64,000 bases of DNA from an uncultured Ignavibacteriales bacterium (GTDB lineage: Bacteria > Zixibacteria > MSB-5A5 > GN15 > FEB-12). The first letter of the stretch is position 1. Every line of letters begins with the position of its first letter. Of the stretch, positions 48,421-64,000 are shown one piece after another. The notes beneath the pieces are model-generated. The model worked only from the letters and a program-made list of their open reading frames with translations, did not search any database and was not told the DNA's origin. Location: assembly GCA_964464605.1 (NCBI GenBank), contig CAYXJN010000003.1:1-64000 (forward strand). The letters run 5' to 3'. Both the position numbers and the translations under genes were made by a program.

Positions 48421-50814
48421 ATGGCATTAGTACCAGGCGCGACAATAGGTCATTTCAGAATTATTCGCCTCCTTGGACAAGGTGGTATGGGCGAGGTATA
48501 TGAGGCAGCCGACACCAATCTCGACCGCCCTGTCGCTCTCAAAGTCCTGCTTCGCGACCAAAATACCCTTCCCGAACATCAGAATCCCATCCTTGCCGAA
48601 GCCCGGCGAGCAGCAAAAATCAACTCTCTTTACGTCGTCAAAGTGTGGGAAGTCTCCACTACCGACGGTGTTTCATACATCGCGATGGAGTATGCCTCCG
48701 GCCCTGACTTGCGCTCGATGATTCCTGTCGGAGAATTGAAGCTTGCATTAAATTTAATCCAGTGGATTGGTGAAGGAATACAAGCTGCACACAGTCAGGG
48801 GATTGTACACCGGGATCTAAAACCCGAGAATATTAAACTCAGTGAAAACGGTGAACCAAAGATTCTTGATTTTGGTCTTTCGGAAGATGTCGATTGCGAT
48901 ACAGTTGACATAACCGGTAAAATCACCGGTACGCTTCACTATTTGGCGCCGGAACAAATGAGCGGAGCACCGGCAACATTTCAATCCGATCTTTTCAGCT
49001 TCGGCACGATATGCTACGAATTGCTCACTGGCTCACGTCCGTTCGAAGGGTCATATCCTGCAAGTGTAATCTATTCGATTCTACATGAGGAGCCAATCCC
49101 TCCGACTGAACGACGCACTAATTTACCCGTCTGGATTGACGCATTTATCGGCAAGCTTCACGCAAAAAATCCGATCGATCGATTTCATGACATGAAAGCT
49201 GCTCTTGAGTTCCTTGAAGCATCCTGGAAAGGAACTGCTCAGCCAGCAAGTTTGGACTATAAGACGCGGCAGAGAAATGTAACCGTCGTTGATCTACGCA
49301 ATCTGTCAGGTGACCCAAACTGGAACTATTTTTGTCAAGGCTTCACTGAAGATGTCATTCGAGAATTAAGCCGACGCACCAAATTAACAGTCAATGCTGA
49401 ACCATCAACGGAAGTTGAGCGTGATGTTCGGGAAGTTTTTAAGCGTTGCCGTTCGGACTTTGTCGTGGCCGGGTCACTGCTTCGGTGGCTCGATAAAGTT
49501 AAACTTAATTTGGCAATTTACGGCAGCGACGGAAATCGACTTATTGCAGCTGAAAACCATGAAGGGGATGTTACCGACCTCTTTTCTATCCTGGCAAAGG
49601 CGGCCGAGCAAACATCGATGGTTCTTGCCAAGGAAAGCGGAGCCTCGGCGCTGCCTGTATCAGGCCCTCGCTCGACAGATGTTACGGCTTATGATTTGTA
49701 TTTGCGGGCAAGGAATTACTATCAGGGAAGCACGGCGCAGGATTTTAATCATGCTATCCAACTCTACAAGAAAGCGTTGGCAATAGAACCTGAGTTTGCA
49801 TTGGCCCATGCCGGTTTAGCCGACGTATACAGCTCACAGTACATGGCTTGGTACGAACGCACCAAAGAACGCATCGAGCTCGCTCAGCGGGAAGCAAATA
49901 CGGCGTTAACACTTAACCCTGAGCTTCCCGAAGCACACCGATCACTCGGCAGGTACTTCCAATTTATTGAAAATCCGATTGAAGCAGAACGATGCTTTAT
50001 ACATGCTATTGAGTTTGATTCGAAGTTTGCCCTTGGCTACCGATCGCTTGGATGGCTAAAGCGTGGGGTCGGCAATTATGACCAAGCCGCACATTTCGCA
50101 AGAAAGGCTTTAGAATTAGCACCGACAGACCTGGAAACTTTATTGCTGCTGAGTCTGATAAGTATCGATCAACGGCAATTCACACCGGCATTGGCAACTT
50201 TGCAGCGCGCAATTGAGCTGGGGCCAGATTACGGGCGAGCGTATTATAATCTTGGATGTGTCTACATGAAGTTGGGGGTATTTGATTTGGCGCTGGAAAA
50301 CTTTTTACAAGCAATTGAATTCAAAGGTGATCCCAATTGCTATACCGATGCCGGATACCTGTATGCGGCAACAGGGAAACATGAAGAAGCTAAGGAAATG
50401 CTTACGGCGTCGATAGAGCTCGGATACTTACCTTTTGTTGCACACTACTTTCTTGCTTTGGCGGAAATGGGTGAAGGCAACTCTGATAAAGCAAAAGCAG
50501 AGTTTGCCACGGTGGTAACACTTACGAACAAAGAAGCAGATGATCCTAATCTCGGCGATATTCACACGCTTGGTTTTCATGCGATGGCTTTGGCAGGTCT
50601 CGGACAACAGGATTCGGCCATACACATCTTGACGATTCTTGAACGACGGGGGGCAGACCAAGGGGAAGTTCTATTATGCGTTGCCAGAGCGTATGCTCTT
50701 TTAGGTGAAAAAACTAAAGCGGAGGAAGTTTTGAATCGCTCCTTCCACACCCATGCAGGTCCAACCCCTCGTGAAGTTGCAATCGACCCCCATTTTGTCA
50801 CGCTACGACGCTGA
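48421..50814 (+). CDS. Hanks-type Ser/Thr kinase with TolB-like and TPR domains (island copy)
   Basis: GQGGMG, VALK, HRDLKPEN, DFG, APE, followed by multiple TPRs. Confidence 0.93.
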   Translation: MALVPGATIGHFRIIRLLGQGGMGEVYEAADTNLDRPVALKVLLRDQNTLPEHQNPILAEARRAAKINSLYVVKVWEVSTTDGVSYIAMEYASGPDLRSMIPVGELKLALNLIQWIGEGIQAAHSQGIVHRDLKPENIKLSENGEPKILDFGLSEDVDCDTVDITGKITGTLHYLAPEQMSGAPATFQSDLFSFGTICYELLTGSRPFEGSYPASVIYSILHEEPIPPTERRTNLPVWIDAFIGKLHAKNPIDRFHDMKAALEFLEASWKGTAQPASLDYKTRQRNVTVVDLRNLSGDPNWNYFCQGFTEDVIRELSRRTKLTVNAEPSTEVERDVREVFKRCRSDFVVAGSLLRWLDKVKLNLAIYGSDGNRLIAAENHEGDVTDLFSILAKAAEQTSMVLAKESGASALPVSGPRSTDVTAYDLYLRARNYYQGSTAQDFNHAIQLYKKALAIEPEFALAHAGLADVYSSQYMAWYERTKERIELAQREANTALTLNPELPEAHRSLGRYFQFIENPIEAERCFIHAIEFDSKFALGYRSLGWLKRGVGNYDQAAHFARKALELAPTDLETLLLLSLISIDQRQFTPALATLQRAIELGPDYGRAYYNLGCVYMKLGVFDLALENFLQAIEFKGDPNCYTDAGYLYAATGKHEEAKEMLTASIELGYLPFVAHYFLALAEMGEGNSDKAKAEFATVVTLTNKEADDPNLGDIHTLGFHAMALAGLGQQDSAIHILTILERRGADQGEVLLCVARAYALLGEKTKAEEVLNRSFHTHAGPTPREVAIDPHFVTLRR

Positions 50815-50845
50815 TTTTTCCCCATCTACCATGAACCCTGCTCAA

Positions 50846-63300: not shown

Positions 63301-64000
63301 TTCATTTCGCATTTACTTAAATGACGGTTCAGGCGGATTTACGCAATCGTATCAGTATCTTATCAACGCATTCGGTTATGACTTCGCCAATGTCGCCACC
63401 GGTATCGATCTGAACGGGGACTATCTGACTGACTACGGCGTTGTCACCGGTAATATCACGTCGACCACTGATACGGCAGCTGTATATCTGTTCCTCGGCG
63501 ACGGTCACGGTTCAGCCGCGCTGAATCCGATTACGTTTATCCTGGTAGGCGGTTCACTCGTGAATCTCGATTTTACCGATTATGACGGTGACAAAGACCT
63601 TGATTTGACGGCTGTCGACGCAACGACGCATGACCTGTATGTCGTGCTCAATGACGGCTTCGGTAACTTTACTACGAGCATTATCATTGATGTTGGCAAC
63701 GGCACCAGCCCGCTTTTCTCTATCGCCGGCGCTGATGTCGACCGTGATGGCAACGCCGACTATCTGTTGGGCGGCGAAGAGGGTTCAGAAATCGTTCTGG
63801 CGATTAACGATTTACCCGATCAGCCGATCAGTGATTCGGAAATGACCGTAACGGCATTTAACAATTTCAACGTTACTATTACCAATCCGAAGGGCTTAAC
63901 TATTTCTGACCTTGAGCAGTCGGTCGCAGGTTCGGAATATCGTGAACTTGATTTCGACAATGACGACACACTCGATACCAGAACGTTCGACTATAACCTG
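60398..64000 (+). CDS. Large secreted protein with SBBP beta-propeller, TSP3 and FG-GAP repeats, truncated by the window end
   Basis: Absent from the ORF track because it has no stop. Begins MIKRLFTIVLVCLL, then FIPNQGQW, W.TNVP, EVYPGID, STFFGG.G.D, DEDGIPDGADNCP; the same frame reads DDTLDTRTFDYNL at the window end. Confidence 0.88.
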   Translation, partial: MIKRLFTIVLVCLLTSISIHAKTATTLTTVASQKRLSFIPNQGQWDVHALYMTRGSVHATWFTQDGAYHQLAAMPAEGMQTKSERNVPANNEVNPQSVVIRQHFLNANPNALITANEQQSFTTNYLHGNDAAKWQTNVPSFASITYREVYPGIDVCYYGDATSLVYDFILSPGADLSQVRIRYDGAESLILGENGQLTVVTPWGELHEKKLFVYQYVAGKKTAIEAAYKIYNDNTYGFELTSAINPFLGVVVDPTIDFQVSFGGSSLDSLKAVAAGSDGSVYAAGVTFSTDFPLVSSFDALYEGSSEAFITKLSDDGATTLFSTFFGGNGNDGISDISITEDHEMIVGGTTSSDNLTTTTNAYDLVYNGQLDAFITKLNSAGNGIIYGTYIGGDGDDELVAIDIDSSEHVVAAIGTNSQNGLFGLSYDITFNGQSDIFLIALDEIGHLKSSTFYGTPGFEWPTDVRFIQDEEDDKDFHWFRVAVSGWIVKDFYFPLKYPIDSTAELGVEEPIVGIFSSLMFMNFSSFYGGSGNDRATSISADQNGYLYITGTTESANFPLKNPFDNSLNGTEGFLVKFNPDNGVLAYSTFLGGSETDAPAGVVVDEVSRETYVFGSTHSTSDFPLVGQLPRSTSAGQDNAFVTKVSPFGSQILFSTFVMSEPQSVITDAAIFDDGSLLFGGQYSDGVNPTQVVVGRIGFDTDEDGIPDGADNCPTLANPLQEDSDNDGIGDACDPEFTVVPTGQPADIFYLASGDFDRNNYVDFAYTGISDQGAGSLHIIFGNKFDTLEVPQHYADFFNAALLADYVDDDTLLDIVARSATHVYILKNKGNRVFEIDSIEVSPLASQSSVVRERNSSKASSMLDLSPVPIFDQIPTHPKFFSVSEPSQLALRERAPAMMESGYPSITAGYFNNDIELDLIVNPSNLLTGNGLGDFSNGPALPFTFDKSDAADVDNDGDDDLAVVDATGSFRIYLNDGSGGFTQSYQYLINAFGYDFANVATGIDLNGDYLTDYGVVTGNITSTTDTAAVYLFLGDGHGSAALNPITFILVGGSLVNLDFTDYDGDKDLDLTAVDATTHDLYVVLNDGFGNFTTSIIIDVGNGTSPLFSIAGADVDRDGNADYLLGGEEGSEIVLAINDLPDQPISDSEMTVTAFNNFNVTITNPKGLTISDLEQSVAGSEYRELDFDNDDTLDTRTFDYNL

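Follow-up and report, generated by a model that had tools for sequence, protein, structure and literature searches.

The stretch of DNA analysed here (the window) comprises the first 64,000 nucleotides of a 327-kb contig from an uncultured Ignavibacteriales bacterium, placed within the Zixibacteria by GTDB and by the public names of its protein homologs, whose genome (G000; assembly GCA_964464605.1) amounts to 2.8 Mb in 18 contigs. A tRNA-Ser(GGA) gene, identified by ARAGORN, serves in it as the integration target of a genomic island spanning 29.4 kb between its attachment (att) repeats. The last cargo genes before the right repeat (attR) encode a protein kinase with a tetratricopeptide repeat (TPR) array and a large secreted FG-GAP protein, and a second pair of the same kind, accompanied by a divergent phosphatase gene, is located in the chromosome beyond attR (Table 1).

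The island is delimited by a 24-nt exact direct repeat, consisting of the last 20 nt of the tRNA gene and four more; a search of the window allowing up to three mismatches returned these two copies and no further one (0 in 100 shuffles), and the tyrosine integrase gene starts 107 nt past the tRNA gene. The earlier note on this DNA, which had described an island with its own attR, was right in this respect: the element, which carries an integrase gene and occupies tRNA-Ser(GGA), is in itself an ordinary genomic island of the tRNA-integrated tyrosine-integrase type. The G+C content at third codon positions (GC3) is 0.40-0.51 in most island genes and 0.52-0.60 in the flanking chromosomal genes; it is 0.44 in the island kinase gene and 0.45 in the gene of the island FG-GAP protein (FG protein below), and 0.52-0.59 in the chromosomal module block. 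The position that the phosphatase gene has in the chromosomal module, divergent to the kinase, is taken in the island by the gene of an SOS-response associated peptidase (SRAP).

Although the genome is a metagenome-type assembly in 18 contigs, an artefact in which two strains were joined or paralogs collapsed has a practically negligible probability. Positions 45000-64000 are spanned by single contigs from runs of three studies (any of which may be the source of the assembly), with 0, 0 and 4 differences, and the junction at attR is contiguous in the contigs of all three, which rules out the misassembly considered in the earlier note. Moreover, the longest identical nucleotide run between the two kinase paralogs is 17, so that there is no repeat long enough to confuse an assembler.

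The two kinases and their secreted partners

Both kinases match Pkinase of Pfam (E 1.8e-43), and the residues of the catalytic motifs are invariant in the family: K41 (the VAIK lysine), H130/D132 (HRD), D150-F151-G152 (DFG) and P177-E178 (APE). Motifs and fold thus characterise them as predicted Hanks-type Ser/Thr protein kinases. The AlphaFold model of the island kinase (predicted local distance difference test, pLDDT, 90.5; predicted template-modelling score, pTM, 0.89) has an alpha/beta domain (residues ~285-405) between the kinase domain and an extended TPR solenoid, and in Foldseek its kinase domain matches PknA and PknB with TMt 0.84-0.86 and 31-35% identity. No hydrophobic 19-mer reaching the threshold for a transmembrane segment was found in either protein, suggesting that both are cytoplasmic; neither has the combination of transmembrane segment and extracellular sensor by which membrane receptor kinases are recognised.

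The PknB/PstP and Stk1/Stp1 systems share with the module described here the kinase fold, the catalytic motifs and an adjoining phosphatase gene of the PPM family. They differ from it in several ways: the kinases of G000 have no transmembrane segment or PASTA domain, their C-terminal part is, according to the model, an alpha/beta domain followed by about ten TPR pairs, and the phosphatase is of the SpoIIE type with a GAF sensor. In agreement with this, NCBIfam scores are far under the equivalog cut-offs, that of PknB_PASTA being 253 bits against a cut-off of 450 and covering the kinase domain only. A role in defence was also considered and rejected. PADLOC reports matches to the defence kinases PD-T4-6, MADS mad6 and BREX PglW, but these cover residues ~6-290 only and are equal in the island and chromosomal copies, leaving a defence reading unsupported; no PD-T4-6, MADS or BREX partner genes were found beside the kinase.

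The open reading frames of both kinases were confirmed at 797 aa each, colinear, with 461 of 797 residues identical (58%) and four gap positions. Their genes are 60% identical in nucleotides, and four-fold degenerate sites (n=218) are identical in 26.1% of cases against 24.5% expected from composition. Synonymous sites are therefore saturated, and the split of the two kinases must be ancient; judged by their sequences, they are anciently diverged paralogs or xenologs. This does not agree with the earlier note, which took the two genes for alternative alleles and mentioned their many synonymous differences; the divergence is not mainly synonymous. Gene conversion and recent duplication were rejected on the same grounds, the saturation of synonymous sites and a longest identical run of 17 nt. 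The long identical blocks mentioned in the earlier note do exist, but they are invariant or nearly invariant across 40 orthologs and therefore give no sign of a special relationship.

Such a relationship is nevertheless indicated by other evidence. Within G000 no paralog is closer to either kinase than the other one, and the next reaches 31% identity over a stretch of 620 residues. Orthologs (E < 1e-150) were found in 35 of 107 other family genomes, mostly in a single copy, and the best of these matches the island kinase at 53%. When a collection of 5.8 billion proteins was queried with the island kinase, the closest match was P0002 (60%), a metagenomic fusion protein of 1188 aa, encoded on a 19-kb contig, in which a CHAT domain stands N-terminal to the kinase, followed by the chromosomal kinase of the host (58%) and then by proteins at 53%. 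In the trees (FastTree on 128 rows; IQ-TREE, quick search with LG+C20, on 39 and 27 rows), the island kinase and P0002 form a pair to which the chromosomal kinase is sister, with 100% support at both nodes in all three analyses, and this clade nests in a group that also contains genera g23, g16 and g18. A fully supported joint clade among more than 120 orthologs shows that the relationship is specific: the island kinase represents a sister lineage of the host kinase, and is neither a member of a distant paralog family nor a recent copy of the present chromosomal gene. Thus the kinship claimed in the earlier note stands, and the trees with 128 and 39 orthologs speak against the dispersed family without specific relationship that it had named as a refuting finding. 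Both copies are under constraint, with intact reading frames and all family-invariant columns kept; in an alignment of 40 orthologs, the island kinase retains all 65 of them.

More distant kinase-TPR genes also occur. Some relatives carry a second one (~30% identical) a few kilobases from the module (L046:15497-17791, L082:14281-16575 and L093:17157-19445), and G000 has its own distant paralog on contig C1. A scan of metagenomes with the kinase alignment returned patterns that were too generic, orthologs (48%) being found at 2 of 77 loci, and was not used.

Each kinase gene is followed on the same strand by the gene of a large protein with a signal-peptide-like N-terminus and Pfam matches to TSP_3 and FG-GAP_3 (the latter with E 1e-20 in three stretches). 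To this extent the description in the earlier note was correct, whereas the VAGS...DYNL segment, which it regarded as distinctive of the two proteins, is conserved in all 22 aligned FG proteins and does not point to a special relationship. The two proteins are alike only over the C-terminal ~650-700 aa (29-33% identity), their N-terminal halves being different: TSP3 and PKD in the island protein, DUF7948, SBBP and TSP3 in the chromosomal one. The shared C-terminal region was modelled by AlphaFold2 (pLDDT 87.8) as an FG-GAP propeller followed by beta-sandwich domains, and its top Foldseek match is integrin alphaV (E 1e-12, TM 0.38-0.43). Both proteins end in a two-repeat dockerin-like tail, which scores 23.7 bits with Dockerin_1 in the chromosomal protein and 15.5 bits in the island protein (cut-off 22.9); the homologous tail in G027 matches with E 1.3e-12.

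The likeness to the integrin alpha headpiece and to CRTAC1-type proteins concerns the propeller and Ig-like domains within the shared ~650 aa, while the TM value reaches only 0.38-0.43 and the proteins considered here are bacterial, secreted and carry the dockerin-like tail. We know of no beta-subunit partner of such a bacterial FG protein. The TSP3 repeats also match the NCBIfam model of the TSP3 cell-cohesion protein MtsC, but with 87 bits against a cut-off of 350.

The module in relatives and at tRNA genes

The neighbourhoods of 30 kinase loci other than those of G000 were examined. A GAF-PP2C phosphatase gene adjoins the kinase in 28 of them, and a homolog of the secreted FG protein is found nearby in 20. 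The FG gene has no fixed place there: it may follow the kinase, separate it from the phosphatase or lie on the far side of the phosphatase. The rest of the G000 flank is not conserved at these loci. The recurrent linkage of kinase and secreted protein anticipated in the earlier note was thereby confirmed, and phosphatase, kinase and FG protein constitute a conserved Zixibacteria module. A literature search combining Zixibacteria, kinase and FG-GAP gave no paper on such a module among the top matches.

The two loci without a phosphatase gene are second copies in genus g44 (genomes G068 and G069). All three copies in a mobile context, that is, these two and the G000 island pair, are without it, whereas all 29 'home' copies have it. 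In G069 (L096:4192-11370), the second copy is enclosed by a 32-nt perfect repeat of the 3' part of tRNA-Leu(CAG), the copies of which are 7147 nt apart; in G068 (L097:8601-15777), the repeat measures 22 nt and the distance is 7155 nt. The only genes of these 7.15-kb islets are the kinase-TPR gene and the gene of a DUF7948/SBBP/FG-GAP protein of 1393 or 1394 aa, and no integrase or transposase was found among 40 neighbouring open reading frames of the six loci scanned. The primary module and the islet are on different contigs in both genomes. In G063, which belongs to the same genus and has a single kinase, the islet is absent at tRNA-Leu(CAG), and the DNA at most 141 nt past the tRNA gene is 89% identical to sequence 1.5 kb beyond the G068 islet; the syntenic tRNA-Leu(CAG) of the window is unoccupied too. 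The FG protein of the islets is sister to the primary FG proteins of g44 (support 95).

Elements that have kept attL and attR and lost the genes for integration and transfer are known as cis-mobilisable elements, or CIMEs (PMC5704250), and the g44 islets, as far as their gene content and repeats tell, fit this definition. An incoming integrase-bearing element could join such an islet by accretion and take it along, which would leave the pair next to attR, as it is in the G000 island. The cases described in that review are integrative and conjugative elements of streptococci and Streptomyces; they differ from the present one in that the G000 island has no internal att, the cargo is a kinase and an adhesin-like protein, and mobility is only inferred.

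A 1256-aa TPR-CHAT protein (L096:3-3773) is encoded immediately beyond the right repeat of the islet in G069. Considered together with the CHAT-kinase fusion of P0002, this neighbour raises the possibility that CHAT proteases and the kinase family are functionally linked.

Other modules also lie close to tRNA genes. In G048 (genus g40), the module comes within 197 nt of tRNA-Ser(GGA), its phosphatase, kinase and FG genes being in the order of G000 and no island intervening, although the kinase belongs to another clade than the island and chromosomal kinases. The module is situated 116 nt from tRNA-Ser(GCT) in G015, behind tRNA-Ser(CGA) in G027 and 29 nt from tRNA-Leu(TAA) in G044. Including the g44 islets, 6 of 30 loci in five genera have the module within 200 nt of a tRNA 3' end, against a chance expectation of ~2% per locus (a rough estimate of our own, G000 having 46 tRNA genes; related genomes are not independent).

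The tRNA-Ser(GGA) site is evidently used by other elements as well. Its left-flank genes are syntenic in 11 of the 15 relatives examined, which carry other content on the right; in five of the 15 (L054, L056, L058, L059 and L064), an integrase 29-33% identical to that of the island follows the orthologous tRNA gene, which marks the site as a hotspot of integration. None of the 15 loci, searched for an 'empty site', has the right flank of G000. In G029, a partial tRNA repeat 12.3 kb from tRNA-Ser(GGA) probably marks another island. A further gene of G000, tRNA-Ser(GCT) (contig C5:157321-157414), has at its 3' end the identical 25 nt forming the att core and could therefore serve as a second integration site.

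Origin of the island pair

The island's other cargo is foreign to the order: among 159 other genomes of the order, homologs of the integrase were found in one and of the WD40 protein (E < 1e-30) in none. The integrase has its closest database relative, 93% identical, on a 5.8-kb contig, and 18 proteins are at least 53% identical to it. The kinase and FG protein, on the other hand, are specific to the family, suggesting that the pair stems from a Zixibacterial host related to G000; a capture from such a host is made plausible by the G048 module abutting tRNA-Ser(GGA) and by the phosphatase-less copies in mobile contexts. We therefore consider it probable (roughly 0.6) that the pair is cargo derived from the module of the host lineage and recurrently mobilised. 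The attR-proximal cargo would then be a functional, anciently diverged second copy of a Zixibacteria-specific kinase-FG pair, which most likely entered the island from a related host's chromosome and arrived in G000 as part of it. The pair might have been acquired by extended excision from the att flank or, as the most economical route, by accretion with, or capture of, a tRNA-linked phosphatase-less pair in an earlier host, followed by cis-mobilisation. Accretion with a phosphatase-less islet would account for the missing phosphatase, while the internal att would have to have been lost afterwards.

Several observations weigh against this origin. Neither a donor genome nor another copy of the island, be it with the pair or lacking it, was found. 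Searches of the island (tblastn, best E 0.5) revealed no relics of the phosphatase, the 388-aa protein or the DUF1761 protein that lie beyond attR, and with up to five mismatches in 24 there is no extra att copy in the first 200 kb of the contig and hence no internal att in the island. In the FG tree, the island protein groups with those of genus g23 and the chromosomal protein with g16, g18 and g44 (98 support each), so that the pairs cannot be simple duplicates of each other, and an approximately unbiased (AU) test rejects the island and chromosomal kinases as exclusive sisters (p 9.9e-5, the group having been defined once the tree was at hand). For the islet kinases, which branch together on a long stem, the position as sister to the primary g44 kinase is weakly supported (87 and 70 in the Shimodaira-Hasegawa-like approximate likelihood ratio test, SH-aLRT). 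In each of the ten relatives examined first, the module lies either on another contig than tRNA-Ser(GGA) or at a distance from it, which amounts to 1.25 Mb in the complete genome G027; linkage at tRNA-Ser genes, which the earlier note suggested testing, is seen as abutment in three other genera, one of them with the same GGA gene and order, and these ten lack it at tRNA-Ser(GGA). Finally, the proximity to tRNA genes may merely reflect placement in flexible regions of the genome.

In captures resembling specialised transduction (the lambda gal/bio type), aberrant excision brings a block beside the att site inside the element, and the earlier note had proposed such a capture of att-flanking DNA. 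Applied to the present case, an island in a relative whose module flanked the attR of the same island would have been excised with the neighbouring genes and re-integrated at tRNA-Ser(GGA) beside the resident ortholog. This origin is possible but clearly less probable than the one preferred here. The two copies are only 3.1 kb apart across attR, which by our own estimate would occur by chance in ~0.2-0.7% of placements in a 2.8-Mb genome; the island pair lies at the attR end of the island and reads the same way as the chromosomal one, its GC3 matches the island rather than the host flank, the kinase tree sets it beside the host's own lineage, and G048 exemplifies a tRNA-Ser(GGA) directly followed by the module. 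What such an excision should have left behind, however, is missing from the island. The phosphatase gene, located between att and kinase in both G000 and G048, is gone without a remnant, and neither an old attR between the SRAP and kinase genes nor the hybrid att of the lambda type is present, so that the capture left no trace. Moreover, the island FG protein is not the sister of the chromosomal one, the module was unlinked to tRNA-Ser(GGA) in the ten relatives mentioned, and the g44 islets demonstrate pairs at tRNA sites far from the primary module.

It is unlikely that the chromosomal block is instead what remains of an earlier element in this tRNA-Ser gene, with two unrelated integrations and an adjacency due to the shared target, although modules at the 3' ends of four different tRNAs in five other genera, the hotspot character of the site with integrases in 5 of 15 relatives, and a right flank syntenic with none of the examined relatives would all suit such tandem accretion. 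The block is host-like in its GC3, no third att copy was found within the 200 kb searched, its kinase behaves as the single-copy ortholog of the family with a phosphatase, and no integrase remnants accompany the tRNA-adjacent modules. Even less can be said for coincidence, that is, an island with ordinary kinase-family cargo that happened to land near a paralog without any special relationship. Some 11 Hanks kinase genes (at 14 matched places) do exist in the genome, proteins with TPR or FG-GAP repeats are widespread in the phylum, and both kinases match generic defence-kinase models through the kinase domain alone; but colinearity over the full length, the fully supported clade, a next paralog of 31% over part of the length and a downstream partner of the same family in both pairs make this explanation very improbable. 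Thus, origin from the module of the host lineage, by way of a tRNA-linked pair, remains the preferred reading. Compared with known tRNA-integrated tyrosine-integrase islands, the G000 island has the usual integrase by the tRNA gene, repeats of the tRNA 3' end, deviating composition and cargo of defence and accessory genes; it differs in that its last cargo genes are a diverged copy of a signalling and surface pair of the host lineage, the resident copy of which lies 3 kb outside attR.

Remaining island cargo and possible role of the pair

The features of the window are listed in Table 1. Besides these, the island encodes an AAA_25 protein, and no conjugation or phage genes were recognised in the Pfam scan of the island. 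The type I restriction-modification (R-M) system, which is complete, and the SIR2_2 protein, which has weak ThsA-like PADLOC matches (E 4e-20), represent the defence cargo. The ImuB-DnaE2 cassette is preceded by an open reading frame of 208 aa without family, possibly an ImuA-like gene, and forms with SRAP, an abasic-site sensor, a mobile set for mutagenesis and damage tolerance. The WD40 protein has a C-terminal propeller and one hydrophobic segment. Left of the island, a 284-aa sigma-70 family protein (8961-9815) is 96% identical in amino acids to its g44 homolog, whereas the neighbouring genes reach only 40-60%. A scan of 46.9-60.5 kb for promoters and terminators gave counts near the shuffle means (20 vs 16.5 and 23 vs 15.7) and was uninformative.

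Table 1. Features of the window around the tRNA-Ser(GGA) island; strand and evidence are given where available.
Feature	Position	Strand	Evidence
tRNA-Leu(CAG), unoccupied counterpart of the g44 islet site	9930..10013	+	ARAGORN; sigma-factor gene and tRNA synteny with L096/L097
tRNA-Ser(GGA), integration target; 3' end is the left att copy	25150..25238	+	ARAGORN; left flank syntenic in 11/15 relatives' loci
attL, 24-nt exact repeat	25219..25242	+	repeat search and shuffles
Island body	25243..54646	.	Pfam, PADLOC, GC3
Tyrosine integrase of the island	25345..26493	+	Pfam Phage_integrase, E 1.5e-27
Type I R-M system (hsdR, hsdM, hsdS), then SIR2_2 protein	31707-38210		Pfam, PADLOC
ImuB (IMS family) and DnaE2-like error-prone polymerase cassette	38349-43543		Pfam, PADLOC
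WD40 protein, 1068 aa	43714-46920		Pfam
SRAP (SOS-response associated peptidase)	47321..48013	-	Pfam SRAP, E 9e-70
Island kinase, 797 aa: Hanks Ser/Thr kinase, alpha/beta middle domain, TPR array (predicted)	48421..50814	+	Pfam Pkinase, TPR
Island secreted protein, 1051 aa: signal peptide, TSP3, PKD, integrin-alpha-like FG-GAP propeller, beta-sandwiches, dockerin-like tail	51173..54328	+	
attR, 24-nt exact repeat	54647..54670	+	repeat search and shuffles
Multi-pass membrane protein, 388 aa, no family match, chromosomal flank	54697..55863	-	
DUF1761 membrane protein, chromosomal flank	55940..56362	-	Pfam
GAF + SpoIIE-type PP2C phosphatase, divergent partner of the chromosomal kinase	56411..57805	-	Pfam
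Chromosomal kinase, 797 aa, orthologous to the single-copy kinase of the family	57814..60207	+	Pfam, homology
Chromosomal secreted protein, 1440 aa: DUF7948, SBBP, TSP3, FG-GAP propeller, dockerin tail	60377..64000 (ends at contig position 64699)	+	

In a sludge metagenome (run X11), a contig identical to the chromosomal flank begins exactly at 54647, and the island part is almost without cover. One contig of this run joins 54532 to 54645, skipping 54533-54644, with a short side of 32 letters at a 90% likeness setting; no contig of the run bridges the empty site. The pattern may hint at a strain with different content left of attR, and is taken as a hint rather than as evidence.

Zixibacteria are uncultured, and we know of no study of any of their signalling systems. 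Acting as a reversible switch, kinase and GAF-regulated PP2C phosphatase would be expected to set the phosphorylation state of substrates, perhaps bound by the TPR array, and these substrates would govern how the putatively calcium-binding surface protein is produced, exported or used. A variant kinase and a variant surface protein would come with the island copy; lacking a phosphatase of their own, they would either depend on the resident one 3 kb away or work unopposed. It is gene linkage that suggests a coupling of kinase and phosphatase to the FG protein, as it does the undescribed signalling-adhesion system proposed in the earlier note; the kinase has no membrane segment, and since it is probably cytoplasmic and the FG protein exported, a direct physical link between them is unlikely. 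A more far-reaching and rather doubtful proposal is that pairs of kinase and integrin-like protein are a self-contained, phosphatase-less 'plug-in' cassette, exchanged among Zixibacteria through tRNA-att islets and islands by accretion and cis-mobilisation, which would couple to the resident GAF-PP2C phosphatase and give the cell a new specificity of surface adhesion or recognition controlled by the kinase of the incoming copy, so acting as a hitherto undescribed mobile signalling-adhesion system that diversifies strains.

New here are the three-gene module, conserved in an uncultured phylum, and its recurrent phosphatase-less form in mobile contexts, including the CIME-like islets. The practical value is modest at present. 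If the pair truly moves between strains, it would extend the natural examples of CIME-type islets and accretion beyond the Firmicutes and Actinobacteria, and mobile elements would here be spreading variants of a regulatory and cell-surface unit of their host, as opposed to the usual cargo of defence or metabolic genes.

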